Assembly (NCBI GenBank): GCA_038060895.1
Contig: JBBTCT010000022.1
Location: 288,001 to 352,000, forward strand
Length of the DNA stretch: 64,000 nt
Source: Planctomycetota bacterium
GTDB taxonomy: Bacteria; Planctomycetota; MHYJ01; WSZJ01
Direction of reading: 5' to 3'
Part shown: positions 3,843 through 60,412 of the stretch, piece by piece
Position numbering within the stretch: the stretch's first letter is position 1
How the letters are laid out: each line of letters starts with the position of its first letter
Notes under the pieces: generated by a model
Told to the model about the DNA's origin: nothing
Seen by the model: only the letters and a program-made list of their open reading frames with translations
Databases searched by the model: none
Position numbers and translations under genes: made by a program

Positions 3843-4289
3843 ATGGGTGAAGTGCACGACCGGATCGTCATCACGAACGACACCAAGTTCCTCGGTTTCG
3901 TGCGCGAGTTCATGTCGCGCATGATCCGCCAGTCGTCGCTCTCCCGCGAGGACGAGAACAAGATCATCCTCGCGGTGGACGAAGCCGTCGCGAACATCAT
4001 CGAGCACGCGTACGAGAACCAGCGCGAGGGGACGATCGACGTCGAGTGCCTGGCCGACCCGGTGAAGTTCGTCGTGACGATCCGCGACTCCGGCCACCAG
4101 TTCAGCCCGGAAGCCATCGAGACGCCGAGCATCGAAGGGCACGTGAAGATGAAGAAGAAGAAGGGCCTGGGCATCTACCTGATGCGCCTCATCATGGACG
4201 AGGTGCGCTACACGTTCCGCGAGGGAATCCAGAACGAACTCGTGCTCGTCAAGTACATCGGGGGAAAGCCCAAGGCACCGCAGGCTTAG
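3843..4289 (+). CDS. Anti-sigma factor / Ser kinase (RsbW-like, HATPase_c_2)
   Basis: LAVDEAVANIIEHAY, IRDSG, GLGIYLMRLIMDEV. Confidence 0.92.
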   Translation: MGEVHDRIVITNDTKFLGFVREFMSRMIRQSSLSREDENKIILAVDEAVANIIEHAYENQREGTIDVECLADPVKFVVTIRDSGHQFSPEAIETPSIEGHVKMKKKKGLGIYLMRLIMDEVRYTFREGIQNELVLVKYIGGKPKAPQA

Positions 4290-4347
4290 TTCCGTTGAGT
4301 CAGCCGGGGAGGATCGCTAGAATCCCCGTCCAACATCGAGGAATCAG

Positions 4348-4695
4348 ATGGCCGAGTTCCACATCCAGACCAAGAAGCTGAACAACAACATCGTCTTCAT
4401 CGCGGTGCAGGGTTTTCTCGACGCCCACACCTTCGAGGAGATGGAGAAGACGATCAACGACCTCTTCGACGGCGGCACCTACCGCCTCGTGGTCGACCTC
4501 TCCAAGCTCGACTACATCTCCAGCGCCGGCGCGGGCGTCTTCATCGGCGCGATCGGCACCGCGCAGGAGAACGACGGGAACATCGTCCTCATGAAGCCGA
4601 GCCCGAACGTGAAGGAAGTCTTCGACCTGCTCGGCCTCAGCCAGATCTTTCCGTTCGCCAACGACGTCGACGGAGCTTCGAAACTGTTCGCGTAG
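4348..4695 (+). CDS. STAS anti-anti-sigma factor (RsbV/SpoIIAA-like)
   Basis: VVDLSKLDYISSAG phosphorylation motif; GAGG SD upstream. Confidence 0.93.
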   Translation: MAEFHIQTKKLNNNIVFIAVQGFLDAHTFEEMEKTINDLFDGGTYRLVVDLSKLDYISSAGAGVFIGAIGTAQENDGNIVLMKPSPNVKEVFDLLGLSQIFPFANDVDGASKLFA

Positions 4696-4771
4696 AGGGG
4701 CCGGGCCGGAATCAGAAATGAAGTCGCCCGGAGCGGAATCGCTCCGGGCGAAGTTGTTTTCGGGGACTCCG

Positions 4772-5323
4772 TCATTCGCCGCGGCGCGCCCAGTCGATGA
4801 CGCGCTTCCAGAATGGGTAGAACCACGGCTCGTCTCCGCTGCGGAACCTCCATCGCCAGGTTTCGTCGGTGGCGGAGCAGAAGACGCGGCCGCGGCCGGT
4901 TTTCCTCGTGACGAATAGCGGCATGCGCCGGTCTTCGGGGCCGCATTCCACAAGCGCCTGCGCGTCCGCCTTGCAGCGGGTCGCAAGAAGCCAATGGATT
5001 CCCGGGATGCCGTCGCTGCGGCGGTCTCTGTCCTCCCAGACTTCCGTGGAGGGCGCCGGATTGGCCGAAAACGAAGTGATCGAGCTCAGGATCCCGAAGT
5101 CGGTCAGCCTGTATGCGTAGACAGCGGGTGATTCGGGGAGCGGCGTGTCGATTTCCACCGGCAGGAGCGGCTGAAGGTCCTTCTCGTCCCAGAGACTCGG
5201 CATCGCCTGTTCGCCGGCGATCAGGATGAGGCCGCCGCCCTCTTCCGCGACCCACGTGACCAGATTCTGCCAGCACATCCAGGACGCCATGTCCGGAGTC
5301 CGCAGCGTCCAGGGATGCCGCAT
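4772..5323 (-). CDS. Class I glutamine-amidotransferase-like domain protein (possibly a fragment)
   Basis: GGGLILIAG...LLPV...GRGRVF...DETWRWR...FW pattern resembles GATase-like domains of large membrane proteins; start uncertain. Confidence 0.55.
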   Translation of the reverse strand: MRHPWTLRTPDMASWMCWQNLVTWVAEEGGGLILIAGEQAMPSLWDEKDLQPLLPVEIDTPLPESPAVYAYRLTDFGILSSITSFSANPAPSTEVWEDRDRRSDGIPGIHWLLATRCKADAQALVECGPEDRRMPLFVTRKTGRGRVFCSATDETWRWRFRSGDEPWFYPFWKRVIDWARRGE

Positions 5324-5407
5324 CGCCGACCCTCCGTAAGTTCCTCTTCCTCGACGCCGCCGGACGGGGAGCTGTTCAGCGCGATCGGGTCCCGCGGGTT
5401 CTACGAC

Positions 5408-49051: not shown

Positions 49052-51865
49052 ATGACGCCCCCGAACCCCCAGCCTCTTCACCCCGCCGCGCGCGAACTCG
49101 ACCCGCCGGTCGGAGGGCTCGCGGCGTATCCGCCGGTTGAAAAGTGGGACAACTGGACGGAGTACGACGCGCAGGCGTGGCCGAAGAAGGTGGAGCACAC
49201 GTACTCGCTGGTGCCGACGATCTGCTTCAACTGCGAAGCGGCGTGCGGGTTGCTGGCGTACGTGGACAAGAAGGACGGGAAGATCCAGCGGTTTGAGGGA
49301 AACCCGGAGCATCCGGGGAGTCGCGGGCGGAATTGTGCGAAGGGGCCGGCGACGCTGAACCAGGTGTACGATCCTGAGCGGATTCTTTATCCGCTCAAGC
49401 GGAACGGGAAGCGTGGCGAAGGGAAGTGGAAACGGGTGACGTGGGACGAGGTACTGACGGACATCGGCGGGCGGATCCGGAAGGCGCTGATGGAGAACCG
49501 GCAGCGCGAGATCATGTACCACGTGGGGCGGCCGGGGCACGAGCTGATTTACAACCAGCGGGTGCTGCATGCGTGGGGGATCGACGGGCACAACTCGCAC
49601 ACGAACGTTTGCTCAGCGGGGGCGCGGGCGGGGTACGCGTTCTGGATGGGGATCGACCGGCCTTCGCCGGATCATGCGAACTCGAAGTTCATGCTGCTCC
49701 TGAGCGCGCATCTCGAGACGGGGCATTACTTCAACCCGCACGCGCAGCGGATCATGGAGGCGAAGGAACGCGGCGTGAAGATGGCCGTGATCGACACGCG
49801 TCTCTCGAACACCGCTTCGATGGCCGACTGGTGGCTGCCGACCTGGCCGGGGACGGAAGCGGCGCTGTTGCTGGCGCTCGCGAACGTGATGATCCGCGAC
49901 AAGACGTACGACCGGGAGTTCGTGCGGCGGTGGGTGAACTGGGAAGAGTTCCTGCGCGAGGAGCGGCCGGGCGTTGCCTCGACGTTTGAGGCGTTCGAAG
50001 CGGAGCTGGCGAAGTTGTACGCGGAGTTCACCCCGGAGTACGCCGAGAAGGAATGCGGCGTGCCGGCGAAGACGATCCTCGAGGTCGCGGCCGAGATCGC
50101 GAAGGCGGGGTCGGCGTTCGCGACGCACGTGTGGCGCAACGCGGCGGCGGGAAACCTCGGCGGTTGGCAGGTGTCGCGCGCGCTGGAACTGCTCGTTGTC
50201 CTCGCGGGCGCCGTCGGCACGAACGGCGGCACCGTCCCGAACCAGTGGAACAAGTTCACGCCGAAGCCGCCGCTGATGCCGCCGCCGTCGAAGGTGTGGA
50301 GCGAGCTGCTCTACCCGAAGGAGTACCCTCTCGCGTTTTTCGAGATGTCGTTCCTGCTGCCGCATTTCCTGAAAGAAGGTCGCGGCAAGCTCGATACGTA
50401 TTTCACGCGCGTCTACAACCCCGTGTGGACTAACCCCGACGGCATGACGTGGCTCGAGGTCCTCACCGACGAGTCGAAAGTCGGATGCCACGTGTGCCTC
50501 TCGCCGACGTGGAGCGAGACCGCGTGGTACGCGGACTACGTGCTCCCGATGGGCCACGGCTCCGAGCGCCACGACCTCATGAGCCAGGAGACGCACGCGG
50601 CCAAGTGGATCGGCTTCCGCCAGCCGGTGCAGCGCGTGTGGCTCGAAAAACAGGGGAAAAAATTCAACTCGACCTGGGAAGCGCACGAAGCGTCCGGCCT
50701 CGGCCAGGTCTGGGAAGAAGAAGAGTTCTGGATCGAGCTGTCGTGGAAGATCGATCCCGACGGCGCGCTCGGCATCCGCAAGTACTTCGAGTCGCCCTTC
50801 GAGCCTGGCAAGAAGATGGAAATCTCCGAGTTCTACCGGTGGATCTTCGAGAACAGCGTGCCGGGGCTGCCGGAGAAGGCGAAGAAGGAGGGACTGACGC
50901 CGCTGGAGTTCATGCGCAAGTACGGCGCGTTCCTGGTCTCGGAGGGGACGGTGCTGGGGCACGAGCAGGCCGTGCCGAGCGAGGGCGCGACGACGGACCC
51001 CGTGACGAAAGTCGTCTCGAAATCCGGTGCGCCCGTCGGCGTCGAAATCGACGGGAAGCCGCTCGCCGGATTCCCGACGCCGTCGCGCAAGCTCGAGTTC
51101 TACTCGAAGACGCTCAAGGACTGGAAATGGCCGGAGCACGCGCTCCCCGGCTACATCAGGAGCCACGTCCACCCTTCGAATTTCGACATCGCGAAGGGCG
51201 AGATGCTCCTCCTGCCGACCTTCCGCCTCCCGACGCTCATCCACACGCGTACCGGCAACGCGAAATGGCTCATCGAGCTCTCGCACTCCAACCCGCTCTG
51301 GCTCAACACCGGCGACGCGGCGCGCTTCAAGGTGGGCATGGGACACCTCCTCAAGGTCCACACGGAGATCGGGTGGTTCATCGACAAGGTCTGGGTGACC
51401 GAAGCGATCCGCCCGGGCGTCGTCGCGTGCTCGCACCACATCGGGCGGTGGCGCGTGATTGAGGAGCAGGCCGGGAAATGGTGCACCGCGCTCGTTGACC
51501 TGAAGGAGCAGTCGGCGGGGAAGTGGAAGATGCGCCACATCCACGGCGTGCAGCCCTTCAAGAGCAGTGACCCCGACTCCGAGCGCATCTCGTGGACGGA
51601 TGCGGGTGTGCACCAGAACCTGACGTTCCCCGTCCAGCCCGACCCGATTAGCGGGCAGCACTGCTGGCACCAGAAGGTGCGCGTCGAGAAGCCCGCGGCC
51701 GGCGACAAGTACGGGGATATCTTCGTCGATACGGCGAAGTCGATGGAGGTGTACCGTCGGTGGCTCCAACTCGCGCGGCCGGCTCCGGGGCCGGGAGGAC
51801 TTCGGCGGCCACGGTGGCTGCCGCGGGCGTACATGCCGGCGAAGGAGACGTACGAAATCCGGTGA
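49052..51865 (+). CDS. Molybdopterin oxidoreductase catalytic subunit (PsrA/PhsA-like, no Tat signal)
   Basis: CFNCEAAC...CAKG 4Fe-4S motif, ERILYPLKR, WDE, HTNVCS, SETAWYADYVLP, C-terminal binding domain; start uncertain (49013-49052). Confidence 0.92.
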   Translation: MTPPNPQPLHPAARELDPPVGGLAAYPPVEKWDNWTEYDAQAWPKKVEHTYSLVPTICFNCEAACGLLAYVDKKDGKIQRFEGNPEHPGSRGRNCAKGPATLNQVYDPERILYPLKRNGKRGEGKWKRVTWDEVLTDIGGRIRKALMENRQREIMYHVGRPGHELIYNQRVLHAWGIDGHNSHTNVCSAGARAGYAFWMGIDRPSPDHANSKFMLLLSAHLETGHYFNPHAQRIMEAKERGVKMAVIDTRLSNTASMADWWLPTWPGTEAALLLALANVMIRDKTYDREFVRRWVNWEEFLREERPGVASTFEAFEAELAKLYAEFTPEYAEKECGVPAKTILEVAAEIAKAGSAFATHVWRNAAAGNLGGWQVSRALELLVVLAGAVGTNGGTVPNQWNKFTPKPPLMPPPSKVWSELLYPKEYPLAFFEMSFLLPHFLKEGRGKLDTYFTRVYNPVWTNPDGMTWLEVLTDESKVGCHVCLSPTWSETAWYADYVLPMGHGSERHDLMSQETHAAKWIGFRQPVQRVWLEKQGKKFNSTWEAHEASGLGQVWEEEEFWIELSWKIDPDGALGIRKYFESPFEPGKKMEISEFYRWIFENSVPGLPEKAKKEGLTPLEFMRKYGAFLVSEGTVLGHEQAVPSEGATTDPVTKVVSKSGAPVGVEIDGKPLAGFPTPSRKLEFYSKTLKDWKWPEHALPGYIRSHVHPSNFDIAKGEMLLLPTFRLPTLIHTRTGNAKWLIELSHSNPLWLNTGDAARFKVGMGHLLKVHTEIGWFIDKVWVTEAIRPGVVACSHHIGRWRVIEEQAGKWCTALVDLKEQSAGKWKMRHIHGVQPFKSSDPDSERISWTDAGVHQNLTFPVQPDPISGQHCWHQKVRVEKPAAGDKYGDIFVDTAKSMEVYRRWLQLARPAPGPGGLRRPRWLPRAYMPAKETYEIR

Positions 51866-54042
51866 AGCTGATCCGCGCCATGGCCGTCCTCGCGCTGGTT
51901 TCCTCCTTTGCTGCCGGGCAGGAAGCGCCCGCCGTTGACGTCACGCGGCTCCTCCGCGAGCTCAACGACGACGATGTCGAGAAGCGCGATGAGGCGACGC
52001 TGCGGCTCCTCGAACTCGGCGGCGCCGCAGAAGCGGCGTTGAGGGCGGCGGAGGCGGAAGCGCCTGCCGAAGCCAGGGTCCGGATCAGAGTTGTGCTCCT
52101 GGCGCTCGAATGGGAGCTCCCGTCCCCGATCCGCAGAGCGGCGGGGCGCAAGCTGGCGGAGTACCTGCAATTCAAGATCGAAGACCGGATTGCGCTCCTG
52201 AACGATCTGAAGAAGGATCTCGAAAAGTTCCCCCTGTGTTACGCCCACGTCATGGCCGTCGCATGGGAGCGCGAAGCGGACGACCCGAATTCCCGCAAGG
52301 CCATCGCAGAGCTCTTTCGCGACGTCCCGGGATCCGTCCACATCGTGGCCCGCCGTATCCTTGCGCGCTCCCCCGGCGCGGCCGGCCTCGCTGCGCTGCG
52401 AGACGCGATCAAGACATTTGACGACGGCGGCCAGGGCAACCTGGAGGCCCCGCTGGCCGTCTGCGCAGCGATGCGCGACGCGGGGCTCGGCGACCTCGCG
52501 ACGCCCGGTTTCGGCGCGCTTCTGCTCAAGCCCGGCGATGCGGCCCAAGGATTGTGCGACGGTGCGGCGGCGCTCGAGAAGTCGGGTCATTCGAAGGAAG
52601 CGATCCTGATGTACCGGCGCGGCGTGGCACTTGACACGTCGCGGGAGGAGGAGCTGAAGCGCCTGGACGCGCTGTGCGCCAGGGAGAACTGGGGCTCGGC
52701 GCATCTCGCGCTTCTGAAATGGCTTCCCGCGGGAACCGAAACGGGAATCCAGCGGGCACGGCTCGAGAAGGCCGGGGCGCTTCCGCCGATGGACCTCTCG
52801 GATTCGCTGAGGCTTCGCAACTGGACGGCGGTGCCGGATGAGGAGTACCGCCTGCTTGGGGACGGAGTGCTCTACCTGGCGGGCGGGTATCGAGGCCAGA
52901 ACGATGTCCCGAACGTGTGCGCGTACGACCTGAAATCCGGATCGCTGCTCTGGGTGTACGCATCGCCGAGCGAGCCGGCGTCGAATGTCGCGATGTACCG
53001 CGGGCGCGGAAGCTGTCTGTTCGCGATGAAGGACGGGCTGCTCGCCCTCATGTCGGTTCAATCGAACCTGGGCTCCGGCGGGCGCCTCGGCCGGTCGGCG
53101 CTTCACACCCGCGTCGTCTGCCTTGCGGCTGAGGGAAGCGCGCGCTGGAGTCGCGAGTATGACCCGAACCCCGGCATGCGCTTCGAACTCCTCGGCGACG
53201 ATGTCGGATGGTTCACCCCGGGGGGAAACCAGTCGCGCGGCCGCGCGTGGCTCACGCGCCTGGGAGACGGACAGGTCGTCCAATCGATCCCCCTGCACGA
53301 CGACGTGGTTCTCGCCGGGCCGGGACGCCTGATGTTCAAGAAGTCGTGGTCGACCCAGCTTTGCAAAGTCGGCGCGGAAGGGATCGAGAAGATCTGGGAC
53401 AGGAAATTCCTGCCTGAAATCACGACCACGGCCGGGTTGCCGGTCTACTCGCTTGACGGCGACACTCTCTTCGCGACGACCGGATGTCATGCAGCGCGGG
53501 TCGACATGAAGTCCGCGGCCACCGAGTGGACGCACGAGTTCGACGCCGATGAGAGGACGGTCGGTGCCGCCGTGCGGGGGGAAGACGTCTTCGTCGTCCT
53601 CGAGGCAGGCGGCGGCACGTGGAAGGTCGTGACGCTCGACGCGGCCAAGGGCGAGCCGAAGGCAGACTTTGAAGGGCCGGCCGGGCCGTCGCCGCGGCGT
53701 GAGTACGGATTCGCGGAGCAGGTCGTCTGGGTGTCGAAGGACGCGTTCGCGCTCGCCGGCCGCATCGTCGACACCGCGGCCCGGCGTGTTTTCAGCGCGG
53801 ACCTCGAGCCTGACGCAGGGCTTCCGTCGCCGAAGGGCGAGCAGGGAATCTCCTGCTCGTCCGGAGCGGCGCCCGTCCCCTACTTCGACTTCGGCGGCGT
53901 TTTCGCGACGCTCCAGACCGGCGTCGCTCCGGTTTCGACAGCCACCCTCCGCGAGCAGGCCGACGTCTGCGAAAAAGCAGGTAGCACATCCGCGGCCGAA
54001 GCTCTTCGCCGCACCGCCTTCGACCTGGACCCGCTTCGATGA
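51862..54042 (+). CDS. Secreted helical + PQQ-like beta-propeller protein
   Basis: Signal peptide, LNDDDVEKRDEATLRL HEAT-like N-terminus, AYDLKSGSLLW propeller blades; GTGA overlap. Confidence 0.72.
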   Translation: MKLIRAMAVLALVSSFAAGQEAPAVDVTRLLRELNDDDVEKRDEATLRLLELGGAAEAALRAAEAEAPAEARVRIRVVLLALEWELPSPIRRAAGRKLAEYLQFKIEDRIALLNDLKKDLEKFPLCYAHVMAVAWEREADDPNSRKAIAELFRDVPGSVHIVARRILARSPGAAGLAALRDAIKTFDDGGQGNLEAPLAVCAAMRDAGLGDLATPGFGALLLKPGDAAQGLCDGAAALEKSGHSKEAILMYRRGVALDTSREEELKRLDALCARENWGSAHLALLKWLPAGTETGIQRARLEKAGALPPMDLSDSLRLRNWTAVPDEEYRLLGDGVLYLAGGYRGQNDVPNVCAYDLKSGSLLWVYASPSEPASNVAMYRGRGSCLFAMKDGLLALMSVQSNLGSGGRLGRSALHTRVVCLAAEGSARWSREYDPNPGMRFELLGDDVGWFTPGGNQSRGRAWLTRLGDGQVVQSIPLHDDVVLAGPGRLMFKKSWSTQLCKVGAEGIEKIWDRKFLPEITTTAGLPVYSLDGDTLFATTGCHAARVDMKSAATEWTHEFDADERTVGAAVRGEDVFVVLEAGGGTWKVVTLDAAKGEPKADFEGPAGPSPRREYGFAEQVVWVSKDAFALAGRIVDTAARRVFSADLEPDAGLPSPKGEQGISCSSGAAPVPYFDFGGVFATLQTGVAPVSTATLREQADVCEKAGSTSAAEALRRTAFDLDPLR

Positions 54043-55136
54043 GAAAACTCACACAAGCCGCGATCCTCTTCGCCCTCGCCGGGATCGCGCTGGGAGAAGG
54101 GAAGGGCTGGCCGCTTTTCCAGGGCGACGCCCGCCGCACGGGCCTGACGACGGGCGAAGGACCGGACAAGTGGAAGAAGCGCTGGGTCGTGGAAGGCAAC
54201 TTTGGCAATTACGACGCTCCCGGATTCGTGGTCGGGACCGACGGCAGCGTCTGCACGGTCGTCGAGACGAATTTCAGCGACGGCTTCGCGCTCTTCTCCT
54301 GGGACGCCGCCGGCAAGGCGCGATGGAGCTGCAAGCTCCCCGACGATTCGCTCGCCGTCCCTGCCTTTGCGCCCGACGGCGGCGTTGTGGTCGGCCTGCT
54401 CGACGGCACGGTGATCAAGGTCAAGGCGGACGGGACGCTGGCGTGGGCGACGGCGACGAAGGGCCCCGTCTCGAGCTCGGCCGCGTTCGCGGCGGACGGC
54501 ACCGTCTACATCGGCAGCCGCGACAATTCCCTCTACGCACTCGACCCGATGGGCGGTCGCCGCTGGAACTTCGCCACGAACGGTTGGGTCACCGCGGCCC
54601 CCGCCCTTGCCCCCGACGGGACCATTTACGTCGCCTCATGGGATGGCCGCCTGTACGCCCTCACCCCCGAAGGAAAGGAAACATGGCGCGCCCAGACCCC
54701 GCGCCCCATCACCGCCTGCCCCGTCGTCGCTTCCGACGGCACGATCTACCTCGCCGGCCAGGACGGCGCCCTCCGCGCCTTCACTCCTGCCGGCGCCGAA
54801 ATCTGGAAAGTCCAGACCGACGGCTGGCTTCCGTTTCCCCCGTGCCTCGATCCCTCCGGGAACATCCTCTTCAGTTCAAACGACAGCTTCCTCCGCTCCC
54901 TTTCGCCCAAGGGGGAAGAGCTGTGGCGCCTGCAGGTCGATCAGCCCAACGCCGCTCCTGTCTGCGACGCCAAGGGCCGGACCTACCTCCTCGCCAACGA
55001 CGAACTCCTCGTCGTGAAGCCGGATGGCAAAGTCCTGTGGAAGCGCCCCGGTGCCCAGTCCGAGGCGATCGCGCTCGGCGCGGACGGGACGTTGTACCTG
55101 CAGGGGACGCGGTTCCTGTACGCGGTTCACGAGTAG
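54039..55136 (+). CDS. PQQ-binding-like beta-propeller protein (BamB-like repeats)
   Basis: WPLFQGDARRTG; repeated SSPA..DGTVYIGS.D..LYAL..G..W. Confidence 0.9.
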   Translation: MRKLTQAAILFALAGIALGEGKGWPLFQGDARRTGLTTGEGPDKWKKRWVVEGNFGNYDAPGFVVGTDGSVCTVVETNFSDGFALFSWDAAGKARWSCKLPDDSLAVPAFAPDGGVVVGLLDGTVIKVKADGTLAWATATKGPVSSSAAFAADGTVYIGSRDNSLYALDPMGGRRWNFATNGWVTAAPALAPDGTIYVASWDGRLYALTPEGKETWRAQTPRPITACPVVASDGTIYLAGQDGALRAFTPAGAEIWKVQTDGWLPFPPCLDPSGNILFSSNDSFLRSLSPKGEELWRLQVDQPNAAPVCDAKGRTYLLANDELLVVKPDGKVLWKRPGAQSEAIALGADGTLYLQGTRFLYAVHE

Positions 55137-55164: not shown

Positions 55165-56589
55165 CTACCTCAGCCACCCCTTGATCGCAAACACGTACAT
55201 CGCCACCGCCGCCACCATGCCCACGCCGAAGGCGACCTGGCCGAGCGTCATGGGCCAGGGGTTCCCGACCACGTTCATGCCGAGCATGCCGCCGACGACC
55301 GTCGGAATGAGCCCGAGGAAACTCACGATCGCGAGCAGCTTGAGGAAGTTGTTCATCTCAAAGCCCTTCACGTTGATGTGAAGCTCGATGAGCGACTTGA
55401 TGTCCTCTTTCAGCGTGGTGACGCGGTCGAAGAGCTGCCCAGTTTCCGCGGTGAGGTCGTCGAGGAATTTGTCCTCGTGCAGGTTGCTGCCGCGCAGCTT
55501 GATCCGGCCGTCGGCAAGCGCGCGGAGGATCGAGGAAAGATGCCCCAGGTCCAGCGCGGCGGCTGAAATCTCGCGGCGCAGGAGGAACGTCTCTTCGAGA
55601 AATTCACGGCCGCCCTCGGAAATAGGAATGGACTCGAAGCGCCGGAGCTCTTCGTCGAACCGCTGAGCCGTAAACTGGAACCGCTCGCGTGCGAGGGCGA
55701 GCAGGAGCAGCGTGATGCGGATCGGGAACGGCCGTGCGGGAAGAGGCGAGCGCGCCGCGAGGCGGGAGATGCTCCCCGGCAGATCGAACGACTCCGGGGT
55801 GGCCGTCATGATCCCTTTCTCCGGGATGATGGCGGTGATACGCACGCGGGTGACGGCCGGAAAGCCGGTCTCGGCGACGGTCGGGATCCACAGAAAGAGA
55901 AGCGACGAGCGCGCGTCGGAGCGCAGGCGCGCGGGGGCGTCGGGGGCGAAGGCCTCGTCGAGGCTGGCCGGTTCGAGGCCCGCCGACCGTGCGGCGACTC
56001 GGATGTGCGCGAGGGACACCGCCGAAGCGTGGAACCAGTGCGACGTGGGGTCGCGAGTCCACTCCAGGCAGGTCCCCCAGTCTGAATCGTCTATCTGGAA
56101 CGAAGTGCCGTCGGGCACCCGCGAGACCTGCGGCATCGTGTTGACCGCGGTTTGACCGAGTCCCCGCCGCAGGCCCGCGGCTGCTCTTCCCGCCCTCGTC
56201 GCAAGCGCCACCGATCGCCCGACGCGGAGGAGTCGAAGCGCGAGCGAGCTTCCGGCGGCGCTGGAGATGCCCGGCGCGAGCGCCGCAATCGGGCCGCCGA
56301 TCGCGACGATGTCGATGATGCGCCACGGGCTCGTGAGCCATGCGGCCGAGTTCTCCGCTGCGCAGAGCTCCAGGACGAAGTTGAGTGCGAACACGCCGAC
56401 CAGAATCCATTCAAGTCTCTGAAGCAGGAGGTTGACGGCGGGACTGATGTCGAAGACGAGAGGCCCGAGGGCGACGGCGAGCGCGATGAGCGCGAGGAAG
56501 CCCATGACGGGCTCGTTCAGCATGCCGGCGAGGCGCGAAGCCAGCGATCGCCGGGCCTCAGCCTGCGGGTCGATTCGTTTGGTGGGCAA
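55165..56589 (-). CDS. Voltage-sensor-like (Ion_trans S1-S4) domain fused to CorA-family Mg2+ transporter
   Basis: N-terminal LEWILVGVFALNFVL..PWRIIDIVAI..LRLLRVGR; C-terminal MNNFLKLL..IPTVVGGMLGMNV..PW..KGWL. Confidence 0.85.
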   Translation of the reverse strand: MPTKRIDPQAEARRSLASRLAGMLNEPVMGFLALIALAVALGPLVFDISPAVNLLLQRLEWILVGVFALNFVLELCAAENSAAWLTSPWRIIDIVAIGGPIAALAPGISSAAGSSLALRLLRVGRSVALATRAGRAAAGLRRGLGQTAVNTMPQVSRVPDGTSFQIDDSDWGTCLEWTRDPTSHWFHASAVSLAHIRVAARSAGLEPASLDEAFAPDAPARLRSDARSSLLFLWIPTVAETGFPAVTRVRITAIIPEKGIMTATPESFDLPGSISRLAARSPLPARPFPIRITLLLLALARERFQFTAQRFDEELRRFESIPISEGGREFLEETFLLRREISAAALDLGHLSSILRALADGRIKLRGSNLHEDKFLDDLTAETGQLFDRVTTLKEDIKSLIELHINVKGFEMNNFLKLLAIVSFLGLIPTVVGGMLGMNVVGNPWPMTLGQVAFGVGMVAAVAMYVFAIKGWLR

Positions 56590-56954: not shown

Positions 56955-57926
56955 ATGAATATCTCAAAGATCGTGACCACCGCTACACTCGCCCTCTGCT
57001 TCTCCCTCGGCATCGCCGATTCTCTCTTCACGACGCGAGCCCTCTTCGCCGATGCCCAGTCCGATTTGAGCAGCGCGCGCAGCCTCGTCGAAGAGACCCA
57101 GGACGCCATCGCACGCGTCGAGAACCTCTCCACGAAGGAGCTCGAAGCCAACCCGGAGCTTCTCCGCGAGGCCCATCGCCTGGCTGAGGACGCGCGGACC
57201 GCGCTGACACGGGCCCGCACTTCTCTGGCCAACCAGCTCGGCAAGTCGATCGGCAGGGAAGAAGCCATCCAGATCAACCTGGCGATCGCGAGCAGCGAAG
57301 CGAAACTGCGCAACGCGTCGAGGAATCTTCCGCCGCTGCCGACGCCCGAGCCGAAGGAAGGCAAGATGTCTCCCGAGCGCGCCGTCAAAGTCCTGAACCG
57401 CGACGTCCAGATACTGACCACGCTTCTCGAACGCTCGAACGCCCTCTATGACGACGACCACGCCCGCGCGACGGTGCAGGCCGCCTTCGACAGGATCGGC
57501 ACCCGGTTCCCGAACGCCAACGAGTGGGGCGACAGTCTCTGGCTCAGGACCCACGACCCGCTCGGTCGCCTGTCGAAGTCGATCGACATCCTCCGCCGGT
57601 ACGCGAAGTCGATCGCTCGCAACGGCAGTAGCATGAATGCCGACTACGTCGTCCACCTCCACGACGCCGCCCTCCGGATCGGCCGCGAACACAAGAGTTT
57701 CATGGAGACCGCCGCCGGCATCGTCGACAACCTGGCCCGCCAGGCCAAGTCGATGCAGGACGACCACGACGATGGCGAGGTCGGCAACCCCAACCCCGGA
57801 CTCGACCGGATCAAGCGCGAAATGAAGCCGCTCTACGAGGCGATCAATGACCGGAACCTCATGAAGCGCCCGAGAGAGGCCGACGAGTGGGTGAAGCTTG
57901 AAGCCGGGAAGAACAAGCAGAAGTAG
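56955..57926 (+). CDS. Secreted alpha-helical hypothetical protein
   Basis: AGGAG SD; signal peptide; AT-rich upstream promoter region; hairpin at 57943-57974. Confidence 0.78.
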   Translation: MNISKIVTTATLALCFSLGIADSLFTTRALFADAQSDLSSARSLVEETQDAIARVENLSTKELEANPELLREAHRLAEDARTALTRARTSLANQLGKSIGREEAIQINLAIASSEAKLRNASRNLPPLPTPEPKEGKMSPERAVKVLNRDVQILTTLLERSNALYDDDHARATVQAAFDRIGTRFPNANEWGDSLWLRTHDPLGRLSKSIDILRRYAKSIARNGSSMNADYVVHLHDAALRIGREHKSFMETAAGIVDNLARQAKSMQDDHDDGEVGNPNPGLDRIKREMKPLYEAINDRNLMKRPREADEWVKLEAGKNKQK

Positions 57927-58006: not shown

Positions 58007-59311
58007 TCAATGACGAGCCGTGCCACCTGACTCGAGCGGCGGAACCCCGAGCCGCCCGCATTCGCTGAGCATCCGGTCGTGCTGCGCGCCGCGCTGGGAG
58101 GTGTCGCCCACCTCGTCAAGGAGTCCCGCGCCTTCTCTCCAGGCGGCCTCCGCTTCCGCACGGCGGCCCTGCGGCAGAAGGAAAAGGGCGTACCCGCACA
58201 AGAACCCGCCTCGGGACCGCACGTCCCGGGCCTCGGCGAGAATCGCGAAAGCGTTCGAGAAGGCCGCTTCCGCCTCTTGCGGCCGCCCGGTTTCCGCGAA
58301 CATCCGCGCACGGTTGCCCCATGCGACGCCCTCGGAACGGCGAATTCCGACCTCGCGATGGATCGCCATCGCTTCCTCGTCCAGCGGTTCCGCCTCGGCA
58401 TGCCGACCGAGGGACATGAGAAGCACCGACAAGTTGCCGAGGACGATTCCTTCCGACCGCCGGTTGCCGACCTCCCTGTGAACGACGAGCGCGTCGCGGT
58501 AGAAGCGCTCCGCTTCTGCGGTGCGGCCCGTCTCGTGGCAGAGACCGCCGAGATTGCCGAGCGTCACGCCTTCGCCGCGCCGCTCGCCGAGCTTGCGCTG
58601 CAGGGACTGCGCTTCCTCGTACGTCCGCTCGGCCTGCTCAAGCCGCCCGGTTTCCTTGTAGTGGAGCCCGAGGTTGCCCAGCAGCAGGCTGACGCCCCTT
58701 GGATCGCCCAGCTCGCGGTGGATTTCGAGCGAGCGTACGTACTCCGTTTCCGCCTGCGCTCCCCGCCCCGTCTCGAGGTACAGATTTCCCAGGTTCATCC
58801 GCACCGCACCCTCGTGCCGCAGGCTCCCCACCTTGAGGTCCTCCGCCAGCGCCTGCGTCAGCGCCTCCTCGGCCCGGGCCGAACGCCCGGTTGCCAGCAG
58901 CACCAGCCCTGCGCGCCGAAGCGATTCCGCCCGCTCGACGCCGGTCGCTGTTTCGGCGTGGGCCAGCCAGAGCCGGGCGGCGGCCTCGGTCTGGAAGCGG
59001 CGGTCCGCGAATTCCGCCGCGCGACCGAGGTAGAACCGCGCGGCCTCTGCGCCCGGCGCGCCGGACGCTCCCTCCGCCCGCCGCGCGTGCTCCGCAAGCT
59101 CTTCGGCCCACGTGTCCGCCAGTCGCGCCGGCAAGTGAAACGCTTCTTCAAGCTCCCGCAGCGTAGCCCCCGGCGGCCTTCCGCCTCCGCGATCCTCGAT
59201 CACGGAAAACGCAATCGCGTGCAGCCGCGCCCGGTCGCCGGGGAGCTGGAGCTGATACGCCGCTTCCCTGAGAAGGGCATGCCGAAACACATAAGCGATC
59301 TCTGCGTTCAC
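58007..59311 (-). CDS. Tetratricopeptide repeat protein (orphan STAND C-terminal module, paralog 2)
   Basis: GTG start VNAEIAYVFRHALLREAAYQLQLPGDRARLH; TATGAT 6 nt upstream; TPR repeats. Confidence 0.85.
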   Translation of the reverse strand: MNAEIAYVFRHALLREAAYQLQLPGDRARLHAIAFSVIEDRGGGRPPGATLRELEEAFHLPARLADTWAEELAEHARRAEGASGAPGAEAARFYLGRAAEFADRRFQTEAAARLWLAHAETATGVERAESLRRAGLVLLATGRSARAEEALTQALAEDLKVGSLRHEGAVRMNLGNLYLETGRGAQAETEYVRSLEIHRELGDPRGVSLLLGNLGLHYKETGRLEQAERTYEEAQSLQRKLGERRGEGVTLGNLGGLCHETGRTAEAERFYRDALVVHREVGNRRSEGIVLGNLSVLLMSLGRHAEAEPLDEEAMAIHREVGIRRSEGVAWGNRARMFAETGRPQEAEAAFSNAFAILAEARDVRSRGGFLCGYALFLLPQGRRAEAEAAWREGAGLLDEVGDTSQRGAQHDRMLSECGRLGVPPLESGGTARH

Positions 59312-59359
59312 GCGGCGATCATACGAATCCCGGCGGCCGTTTCCGGTGTATGTCATTCC

Positions 59360-60412
59360 ATGAAAACCCTCGCGACCGTCGCTTCGCTGGCCCTCGTCAT
59401 TTCCGCTGCCGCCGAGCCTCCTGCCGTCGCCCCGAAGCCAAAAGGGGACCGGGCCCTCGCGCTCAGCGTGACCATGCCCAGGGAAGGGGACTACGCGAAG
59501 GAGTTTGAGGAAGCGCAGAAGGCGGGGCTGCGGCACAACGTGCTGTCGTTCGACTGGGCGGACCTGGAGACGGCGGAGGGGGAGTACAAGCCGGCGACGA
59601 ATTTCCTCGTGATTGCCAACGCGTGGTATCCGCCGCGCAAGGTCCCGGTGCACTTGATGGTGCGGCCGATTCACACGAACCAGGACGCGCGGCCGGCGTT
59701 CCGGAAGGGGAAGGCGTTCGACGACCCGGAAGTGATCGCCGCTTTCAAGCGGCTGCTCGACTGGGTTTTCGCGCAGGTCCCCGACCTCGAGGTCCCCAGC
59801 TTTTCGATCGGATCCGAGAGCGACCTCTGGCTCGAGCAGGACGACGCGCGCTGGAAGGCCTTCGGGACGTTCCTCAAGGAGGCCGCCGCGCACGCCCGCA
59901 AGCTTCGCCCCGGCCTGAAGGTCGCGAGCGAATTTCGCCTCGCGGGCATCCGCGGCAGTCACTCCGCGCGCCTGAAGGGACTGCTTTCGAGCTGCGACGT
60001 CGCGGGCGTCTCCGACTACCCGATCGACGACCAGACGATCGCCCTCGACCCCGCCGCAGTCCGGGCGACGTTCAAGGACGCGGTCGCGTTCGCGGGGAAA
60101 AAGCCGGTGTACTTCTACCAGCTCGGTTACCCCTCCGGCGCCGGCTGCAAGAGCTCCGAGGAAAAACAGGCGACCTTCATCCGCGAAGTTTTCGCCGCGT
60201 GGGACCAGCACGAGAAGGCCGTCGCGTTCGTGAACACCACCTGGACCACCGACATCCCCGCCGCCGCCGTCGAGGGCTACACGAAGTACTACCAGTTCGA
60301 CACGCCCGCCTTCCGCGATTTCCTGGGCTCGCTCGGGCTGCGCCACGAGGACGGGAAGCCGAAGCCCGCGTGGGAAGCGCTGCGGGACGAGACGAAAAAG
60401 CGGGGCTGGTAG
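59360..60412 (+). CDS. Secreted glycoside hydrolase-like TIM-barrel protein (clan GH-A-like, atypical)
   Basis: Signal peptide; FDWADLE..GEY, SIGSE, GVSDYP, KPVYFYQLGYPS, SEEKQA.F, GL..DGKPKPAW. Confidence 0.7.
   Translation: MKTLATVASLALVISAAAEPPAVAPKPKGDRALALSVTMPREGDYAKEFEEAQKAGLRHNVLSFDWADLETAEGEYKPATNFLVIANAWYPPRKVPVHLMVRPIHTNQDARPAFRKGKAFDDPEVIAAFKRLLDWVFAQVPDLEVPSFSIGSESDLWLEQDDARWKAFGTFLKEAAAHARKLRPGLKVASEFRLAGIRGSHSARLKGLLSSCDVAGVSDYPIDDQTIALDPAAVRATFKDAVAFAGKKPVYFYQLGYPSGAGCKSSEEKQATFIREVFAAWDQHEKAVAFVNTTWTTDIPAAAVEGYTKYYQFDTPAFRDFLGSLGLRHEDGKPKPAWEALRDETKKRGW

Follow-up and report, generated by a model that had tools for sequence, protein, structure and literature searches.

A voltage-sensor-like domain fused to a CorA-type channel in Planctomycetota and other prokaryotes

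Known effectors of S1–S4 voltage-sensor domains are tetrameric P-loop pores, the phosphatase of the voltage-sensing phosphatase (VSP) proteins, a proton path inside the sensor (Hv1) and the eukaryotic transporter SLC9C1; the VSP proteins are eukaryotic as well. CorA is a pentamer gated by cytosolic Mg2+, and its opening is controlled by rearrangement of its α/β domain. In the PDB titles of Thermotoga maritima CorA (TmCorA) structures, the Mg2+-bound state is named as closed and symmetric and the states free of Mg2+ as open and asymmetric. SLC9C1, the sperm Na+/H+ exchanger, is described in a review as a eukaryotic dimeric secondary transporter with a C-terminal sensor, whose long S4 reaches cytoplasmic helices, and a cyclic-nucleotide domain (PMC13095418); the abstract of another paper describes it as the sole known transporter regulated by voltage-sensing domains (PMC10620092). 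Here, we report one gene that joins a predicted voltage-sensor domain to a CorA-type channel in a single reading frame. The gene is located in a 64,000-nucleotide stretch of Planctomycetota bacterium DNA (assembly GCA_038060895.1, contig JBBTCT010000022.1, positions 288 001–352 000 of the forward strand), which is referred to as the window in the following.

The fusion gene occupies window positions 55165–56589 on the minus strand, with the stop codon at 55165–55167. As judged from the open reading frame (ORF) list and the translation, it encodes a protein of 474 residues and begins with a TTG start codon; P0002, the nearest homologue with 90% identity, has its start at this position too, there with M. 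Pfam assigned PF00520 (Ion_trans) to residues 52–154 (profile positions 30–128 of 241, 29.8 bits with the curated cut-off at 25, E 4.3e-7) and PF01544 (CorA) to residues 184–466 (profile positions 5–290 of 292, 81.4 bits with the cut-off at 27, E 9.2e-23), both matches being beyond chance. The NCBIfam equivalog threshold of TIGR00383 (corA) was missed, with 40.5 versus 200.75 bits and a match over residues 307–473 only. The Ion_trans match is confined to the S2–S4 part of the profile and stops at position 128, and CorA β-strands begin at residue 154 in the AlphaFold2 (AF2) model; therefore, the S5-P-S6 pore module is absent. Pfam, AF2 and Foldseek all agree with an earlier note on this DNA, made from the letters alone, which had described four N-terminal helices with no K/Na pore, followed by a CorA soluble domain and two transmembrane (TM) helices with GMN.

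The N-terminal half starts with one cytoplasmic helix preceding S1 (residues 8–23, 56521–56568), which was observed in the AF2 model of the N-terminus; it is basic and poorly conserved, with a score of 0.288 on a scale where 1 is invariant. The four helices of the sensor, all encoded on the minus strand like the rest of the gene, were delimited by the models and by column counts in the family alignment. S1 covers residues 26–45 (56455–56514), S2 residues 50–77 (56359–56442), S3 residues 88–104 (56278–56328) and S4 residues 115–139 (56173–56247); in the model, the S4 helix spans residues 115–143 and runs on into the cytoplasm. S2 reads E60-WILVGV-F67-ALN-F71, S3 reads W89-RII-D93 and S4 reads L-R119-LL-R122-VG-R125-SVALAT-R132-AG-R135. 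The Ion_trans hallmarks that the earlier note had pointed out in S2, S3 and S4 are thus all present, with PF00520 above its cut-off. The regular spacing of S4 arginines at every third residue, also proposed there, holds for R119, R122 and R125; it does not extend to R132, which follows seven residues after R125, or to R135, which is not conserved. The segments before S1 and after S4 are rich in Arg and Lys, so S4 is predicted to end in the cytoplasm, the site of the CorA soluble domain. By this prediction, the two modules share not only one reading frame but also a compatible topology.

To describe the conservation of the sensor, we counted columns over 87 sequences, which are 17–85% identical to the N-terminus of the fusion protein. 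F67, the candidate charge-transfer Phe of S2, is Phe in 87 of 87 sequences. Position 70, the inner acidic site of S2, is E in 78, D in 7 and N in 2, and the outer acidic or polar site E60 is E in 45, D in 18, N in 14 and Q in 5. In S3, D93 is Asp in 86 sequences and W89 is conserved in 79. In S4, R119 is Arg in 86 sequences and Lys in one, R122 is Arg in 85 and R125 is Arg in 79; R132 is Arg in 79 and Lys in 6, and only eight sequences have Arg at the position of R135. E26, located at the cytoplasmic start of S1, is E in 52 and D in 31 sequences (83 acidic), and P43 is kept in 80. The spacing is constant too: F67 and D93 are 26 residues apart in 84 of 85 sequences, and R132 is 50–56 residues away from the conserved W185 in 73 of 80. 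The family therefore has the layout of a charge-transfer centre (S2 Phe, acid at +3, S3 Asp), the inner S2 acid being missing in the window protein. The E60-x6-F67-x2-[E/D]70 spacing and the S3 Asp resemble E283, F290, E293 and D316 of Shaker, which we take to be the corresponding residues.

Among the regions of the protein, the score is highest for TM1 (0.718), followed by the GMN loop (0.652), S4 (0.647), S3 (0.617) and S1 (0.572). TM2 and the stalk both score 0.521, S2 0.458 and the S3–S4 loop 0.425, and the lowest values belong to the cytoplasmic helices (0.378), the α/β domain (0.346) and the linker (0.234). By these scores, the sensor is as constrained as the GMN pore, and the soluble domain of CorA is less constrained than either. 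Strong selection acts on the residues that characterize a functional voltage sensor, namely the arginines of S4, the Phe of S2 and the acids of S2 and S3. Of the 43 genome-derived rows, 40 could be compared at the four S4 positions 119, 122, 125 and 132, all of which are R or K in 34 rows; the exceptions include L008 (L122), L046 (V125), L023 and L024. The last two (4001–5326 in each case) are loci from Verrucomicrobiota metagenome-assembled genomes (MAGs) and represent natural charge-neutralized variants.

The fold of the N-terminus was analyzed by sequence profiles and by modelling. One family profile, built from 35 members, was searched against all PDB sequences and matched 112 distinct sequences at E ≤ 0.01. 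Over positions ∼20–119 it matched the sensor domains of Cav2.1 (3.8e-15), Cav2.2 (3.5e-13) and NavPaS (9.7e-12); further sensor-domain matches included Kv4.2 (4.3e-9), NavRh (4dxw, 7.6e-8) and one NaChBac chimera (6.8e-6). The full-length AF2 model, with a predicted local distance difference test (pLDDT) value of 76, contains N-terminal helices at residues 26–45, 50–77, 88–102 and 116–139, which are followed by the CorA α/β domain, long helices and TM helices at residues 415–435 and 449–470. Since the Foldseek matches listed for the full-length model were CorA only, residues 1–165 were modelled separately, using an 87-sequence alignment; this sensor model has a pLDDT of 83.2 and a predicted template modelling (pTM) score of 0.67. 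All the Foldseek matches listed for the sensor model are sensor-bearing proteins. VIA-align of the Foldseek candidates gave Z 12.5 with a root-mean-square deviation (rmsd) of 2.7 Å over 124 residues for the third voltage-sensor domain of Nav1.5 (VSD-III) and Z 11.5 with an rmsd of 2.4 Å over 107 residues for NavCt; by the caveat of the tool, Z values below ∼13 can reflect a common arrangement in helical bundles. In a Foldseek-independent structure search of 48 161 representative PDB chains, ranks 1–43 were all sensor or sensor-like domains, and the first unrelated fold, ClyA (Z 8.8), appeared at rank 44. The fold evidence is moderate by itself and strong when combined with the sequence profiles. 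On the basis of these models, the N-terminus is a bona fide voltage-sensor fold, which agrees with the reading of the four helices in the earlier note.

S4 is connected to the CorA half through one linker (residues 140–153, 56131–56172), which is variable in sequence and was modelled with low confidence; its net charge is positive in 60 of 87 sequences. The CorA cytoplasmic domain (residues 154–414, 55348–56130), assigned by Pfam, Foldseek and the family profile, contains the α/β domain, long helices and the stalk helix. TM1, the pore helix (residues 415–435, 55285–55347), is the most conserved region of the fusion family, and its L427-I428-P429 is invariant in the 35-member family alignment. 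The GMN signature (G437-M438-N439, 55273–55281) lies at the outer end of TM1; across the 35 members, the counts are G 35, M 34 and N 35, and GMN was also found in 42 of 43 genome-derived rows, the exception (L021) being misaligned or frameshifted there. TM2 (residues 449–470, 55180–55245) is followed by the conserved C-terminal K-G-W-L-R. For an outer helix, TM2 is well conserved (T448 in 33, Q451 in 34, F454 in 33 and Y465 in 33 of 35 members), which would fit a packing partner.

In Foldseek, the full-length model matched TmCorA and Methanocaldococcus jannaschii CorA (MjCorA) with E values from 7.7e-13 (8tmb_B, TMt 0.64) to 6.5e-10 (4ev6_E), with TMt values between 0.61 and 0.69. The family profile matched PDB CorA structures with E 2.1e-22 over profile positions 141–461. 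Owing to the GMN pore, the cations conducted would most likely be Mg2+, Co2+ and Ni2+. In TmCorA, D89 and D253 form the acidic Mg2+-sensor pair between subunits. In an uncertain HMMER alignment of ∼15% identity, D89 falls on position 212 (acidic in 4 of 35 members, R or H in 18), and D253 falls on position 378, which is D in 15, E in 5 and N in 6; at most, this suggests that the family may not retain an intact cytosolic Mg2+ sensor of the canonical type. One complex prediction with four hairpins (residues 385–474) and the sensor (residues 14–150) gave ipSAE values of 0.01 and 0.00; it was run without controls and is uninformative on contact between sensor and pore.

The fusion is present in many other genomes. 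One word-indexed search identified 61 relatives, 45 of which carry both precomputed Pfam domains; the best of them is 90% identical and is named as a Planctomycetota MAG CorA-family protein. An exhaustive HMMER search, which covered 1.84 billion cluster representatives (50%-identity clusters), matched 477 clusters at E ≤ 1e-3, 213 at E ≤ 1e-10 and 97 at E ≤ 1e-30. The domain census used the best 150 of the 477 clusters, and the 75 representatives of at least 400 residues were scanned with Pfam. CorA was found in 75 of 75, and Ion_trans was found at E ≤ 0.01 in 71 and with at least 25 bits in 61; in the 71 matching representatives, the Ion_trans matches end at or before profile position 115. 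Many of the 75 representatives shorter than 400 residues begin within S4 or appear to be cut at contig ends, and they speak neither for nor against a sister group without sensor. One HMMER relative of 649 residues (P0102) may either lack the cytoplasmic domain of CorA or result from a chimeric gene call. The species-genome scan revealed 42 loci, and in 40 of them the tblastn match spans both modules, from query residue 47 or lower to residue 473–474. With both domains in 71 of 75 representatives and both modules spanned at 40 of 42 loci, which are distributed over several phyla, the fusion is not the one-off chimera that the earlier note had allowed for.

The bacterial carriers belong to Planctomycetota, Acidobacteriota (Vicinamibacteria), Verrucomicrobiota and Gamma-, Beta-, Alpha- and 'Delta'-proteobacteria; among the genome loci there is one archaeal carrier, Methanomassiliicoccus. 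Four carriers are cultured: Colwellia hornerae ACAM 607, Pseudomaricurvus alcaniphilus MEBiC06469, Aliiglaciecola litoralis JCM 15896 and Paraglaciecola arctica BSs20135. In the ESM Atlas, both domains occur together in four clusters of at least 50 members; the three clusters listed have 89, 222 and 51 members, and two of these three are mostly archaeal. Within the phylum of the window genome, the fusion was found in 8 of 401 genomes (even sample, window genome counted), all eight matches being full length, and within the same genus it was found in one of three other genomes. The fusion gene is rare and patchy inside the phylum, yet the family extends over several phyla. In a quick maximum-likelihood tree of 38 rows, from which the fragmentary L018, L021, L042, L044 and L045 were left out, the sequences group by phylum only in part, with 6 changes over 7 rows for Planctomycetota and 4 changes over 16 rows for Pseudomonadota. 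The fusion protein and the canonical CorA of its own genome gave no BLASTP match at 1e-5; therefore, the long archaeal branch served as the root of the tree, and statements on this root and on the origin of the family are unsafe. With this unsafe root, the tree fits an old family with some lateral transfer.

Besides the fusion, the window genome (5.4 Mb, 86.5% complete) encodes one separate full-length Ion_trans channel (profile positions 2–228, 55.8 bits), one canonical CorA (224 bits to PF01544) and three MgtE-domain genes. The Ion_trans channel and the canonical CorA are located at C1:21466–22050 (minus strand, L003) and C16:99596–100486 (minus strand, L001); either fusion module could derive from a gene of this kind. 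In each of five other carriers, one or more canonical CorA proteins of more than 200 bits occur beside the fusion, which scores 86–110 bits. Since canonical CorA coexists with it in six of six genomes checked, the fusion is there an extra paralogue rather than the housekeeping Mg2+ importer.

Because its charge-transfer residues are near-invariant, voltage modulation is the best supported functional reading of the family, as the earlier note had suggested. We consider it fairly probable that the fusion protein serves as an accessory divalent-cation channel of the CorA type, with membrane voltage modulating its opening. The protein would form a CorA-like pentamer with one N-terminal S1–S4 sensor per subunit, the five sensors being placed at the periphery. 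The membrane potential would displace S4, and this displacement could be passed to the CorA gate through the part of S4 that extends into the cytoplasm (helical up to residue 143) and the linker, which is fairly constant in length, into the N-terminal α/β domain, a plausible receiver of the S4 movement. Alternatively, the sensor might act by contact with TM2 or the TM ring. By either route, coupling would shift the open–closed equilibrium of the pore, so that cation flux would respond to voltage as a regulatory signal besides the driving force. The sensor may also partly stand in for the cytosolic Mg2+ sensor, as the D89-aligned position is rarely acidic in the weak alignment. Either depolarization or hyperpolarization might open the pore. 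In its boldest form, the proposal describes a genuinely voltage-gated Mg2+ channel that would represent a structural class of its own, with five sensors around a five-fold CorA pore and S4 acting on the gate via the cytoplasmic funnel and without an S4–S5 linker, while the cytosolic Mg2+ sensor would have been replaced in part by voltage sensing; we regard this form as possible, at somewhat below an even chance.

Several observations weigh against voltage modulation. The pTM of the full-length AF2 model is just 0.56. For the sensor model, Foldseek found nothing at E ≤ 1e-3, the best match being Kv2.1 with E 0.021; the fold assignment of the sensor therefore rests on VIA-align, with Z values in the range of the caveat mentioned above, and on the sequence profiles. 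Only the arginines R119, R122 and R125 stand in triplet register in S4. Position 70 is N in the window protein (codon 56380–56382) versus E or D in 85 of 87 sequences; N70 is exclusive to the window protein and its 90% identical relative (2 of 87) and may alter or weaken voltage sensing in the window lineage. L023 and L024 read N119, R122, L125, Q132 and V93, yet they keep the architecture and GMN; without R119, R125, R132 and D93, they indicate that the sensor domain can persist without its charges. Finally, the linker is the least conserved region of the protein, and the pLDDT of residues 131–150 is below 50 in the full model.

Some of these observations would also agree with other explanations. 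If the four N-terminal helices were a voltage-insensitive structural module, serving in anchoring, assembly, localization or lipid contact, with ordinary CorA gating by cytosolic cations, the persistence of the domain in L023 and L024 without most gating charges or D93 would be easy to understand, and so would a linker that is variable and poorly modelled and a contact between sensor and pore that is not established. However, a purely structural role would hardly explain why F67 is kept in 87, D93 in 86, R119 in 86 and R122 in 85 of 87 sequences at 17–85% identity, or why S4 is conserved to the same degree as the pore; unchanged Mg2+ sensing is also at odds with the D89 equivalent, which is acidic in only 4 of 35 members in the weak alignment. 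We therefore consider this explanation unlikely. It is a little harder still to believe that the domain is a sensor for some stimulus other than voltage, in which the sensor-type scaffold would respond to external pH, to a metal ion or to a lipid. Zn2+ and pH act on Hv1 and TMEM266, which are precedents for such a stimulus; according to their record and run labels, the carriers come from groundwater, soil and cold marine settings, habitats in which ion and pH conditions may vary, and outer acidic or polar sites are conserved, their kind being variable (E60: E45/D18/N14/Q5; D47: acidic in 40 of 87). The best-conserved residues, however, are the buried charge-transfer set and not the loops, as seen from the score of the S3–S4 loop, and a known ligand site was not identified.

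The sensor might itself conduct protons, through an Hv1-like path or an omega pore, with H+ flux coupled to metal flux along two pathways in one protein; ZntB is known for Zn2+/H+ co-transport, and Hv1, too, has just three S4 arginines. In the S1 core (residues 28–46), however, acidic residues occur in at most 2 of 87 sequences per column, except for position 44 (11 of 87), so there is no conserved equivalent of the Hv1 selectivity Asp. In addition, the hydrophobic plug F67 is invariant and the R119/R122/R125 series has no gap. We consider such a proton path very improbable, and the proton modulation that the earlier note had offered beside voltage received no specific support, as the S1 core is without a conserved acidic residue.

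The neighbourhood of the fusion gene was also analyzed. The gene converges on one gene for a PQQ-type β-propeller protein (54039–55136, plus strand) and diverges from one unannotated gene (56955–57926, plus strand), beyond which one tetratricopeptide-repeat (TPR) protein is encoded; with convergent and divergent neighbours, the fusion gene is monocistronic. No conserved neighbour was found in two ORF-clustering passes over 43 loci, none being common to more than four loci; the larger neighbour clusters were alternative-frame ORFs within the fusion gene itself. The β-propeller gene overlaps by 4 nt with the gene at 51760–54042 (plus strand); the PQQ_2/BamB-like matches are 86.3 bits for the former and 27.8 bits (weak) for the latter, and at other loci these two genes have no tie to the fusion gene. 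In the ORF at 58007–60346 (minus strand), the C-terminal part is a TPR-repeat protein (TPR_12, 103.9 bits); opposite to it, on the other strand, lies a 777-residue ORF without Pfam match, and the true frame may be either one. With ARAGORN, tRNA and tmRNA genes were not found anywhere in the window, and the GC content across the window is 0.61–0.71 (2-kb windows). The fusion gene is present in groundwater metagenome DNA runs. In one aquifer sample, RNA-library contigs of 229 nt (55991–56219) and 152 nt (55709–55860) matched it with no mismatches; DNA carry-over is possible in RNA libraries, and the rest of the gene is without RNA cover, which proves nothing, so these contigs are at most a weak hint of transcription.

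Both domains have already been labelled by database pipelines, in the precomputed Pfam column and in one automatic ESM Atlas cluster name; the architecture is therefore visible in databases and apparently uncharacterized. In full-text literature, with subscription-only papers and supplements outside the scope of the search, no description of a sensor–CorA fusion was found, and passages from PMC13095418 and PMC1635747 do not mention it; the statement of the earlier note that such an architecture had not been seen characterized agrees with this result. As far as can be told, what is new here is that the modularity of the voltage sensor may extend to a new effector and a new symmetry. If the voltage-modulated reading is true, the sensor hard-wired to CorA would add a new effector class and five-fold symmetry. 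In the boldest form of the proposal, no other voltage sensor is known to act on a channel without P-loop, and no other prokaryotic voltage sensor would have an effector different from a pore domain. Prokaryotes, too, would then reuse the sensor module beyond P-loop channels. The fusion may let microbes control magnesium entry through membrane voltage; it would tie the homeostasis of Mg2+, a matter of importance for the physiology of ribosomes and of energy, directly to the membrane potential of bacteria at the molecular level. Since the family is small, rich in soluble domain and present in cultured, non-pathogenic marine bacteria, its electromechanical coupling would be open to genetics, flux assays and cryo-EM, for which L023, L024 and the N70 variant of the window provide natural comparison points for the sensor charges.

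Compared to known systems, the C-terminal half makes the protein a member of the CorA/MIT superfamily and is closest to CorA of T. maritima and M. jannaschii, with which it shares the fold over residues 154–474, the two C-terminal TM helices, GMN at the end of TM1 and the basic aromatic C-terminus. Different from CorA, the fusion family has a four-helix sensor before the soluble domain, and its loop after GMN reads V-x-G-N-P-W, whereas canonical CorA has the MPEL motif there. CmaX (7nh9) was matched by the family profile at E 3.1e-6. The outer loop of the fusion, G-x-N-x-x-G-x-P, resembles that of ZntB; however, the signature is GMN (M in 34 of 35) and not GVN or GIN as in ZntB, and ZntB was not among the best 60 rows of the search of the family profile against PDB. 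To our knowledge, neither the CmaX nor the ZntB branch carries a voltage sensor.

The N-terminal half shares its homologous S1–S4 domain, including the acid-Phe-acid of S2, the S3 Asp and the triplet arginines of S4, with NavAb, NavMs, NaChBac, NavRh and KvAP; in the search of 48 161 chains, KvAP matched the sensor model with Z 9.3. The S4–S5 linker, the S5-P-S6 pore and the tetrameric P-loop assembly of these prokaryotic voltage-gated channels are absent from the fusion, which, lacking this pore module, is not a voltage-gated P-loop channel. Hv1 is likewise a sensor that works without a separate P-loop pore, and it has three S4 arginines; its hallmark is the selectivity Asp of S1 (D112 in human Hv1), whereas the S1 core of the fusion has no conserved acid and one CorA channel is attached. 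Hv1 was not among the matches listed in the Foldseek, VIA-align, profile and 48 161-chain searches, a similarity still being possible. With Ci-VSP, the fusion shares the pore-less sensor, the short linker after S4 and the cytoplasmic effector, and in the same structure search Ci-VSP matched the sensor model with Z 10.7 and an rmsd of 3.2 Å over 128 of 136 residues. However, the effector of Ci-VSP is an enzyme, whereas that of the fusion would be an ion channel with its own TM helices, prokaryotic and presumably pentameric. SLC9C1 (Z 10.6, rmsd 2.6 Å over 109 residues in that search) likewise has a sensor that regulates one transport protein without P-loop pore; its sensor is C-terminal to the transporter, whereas the fusion sensor is N-terminal to the channel. 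By analogy, the working mode of the fusion protein would be most like that of sensors acting on non-pore effectors, as in VSP and SLC9C1.

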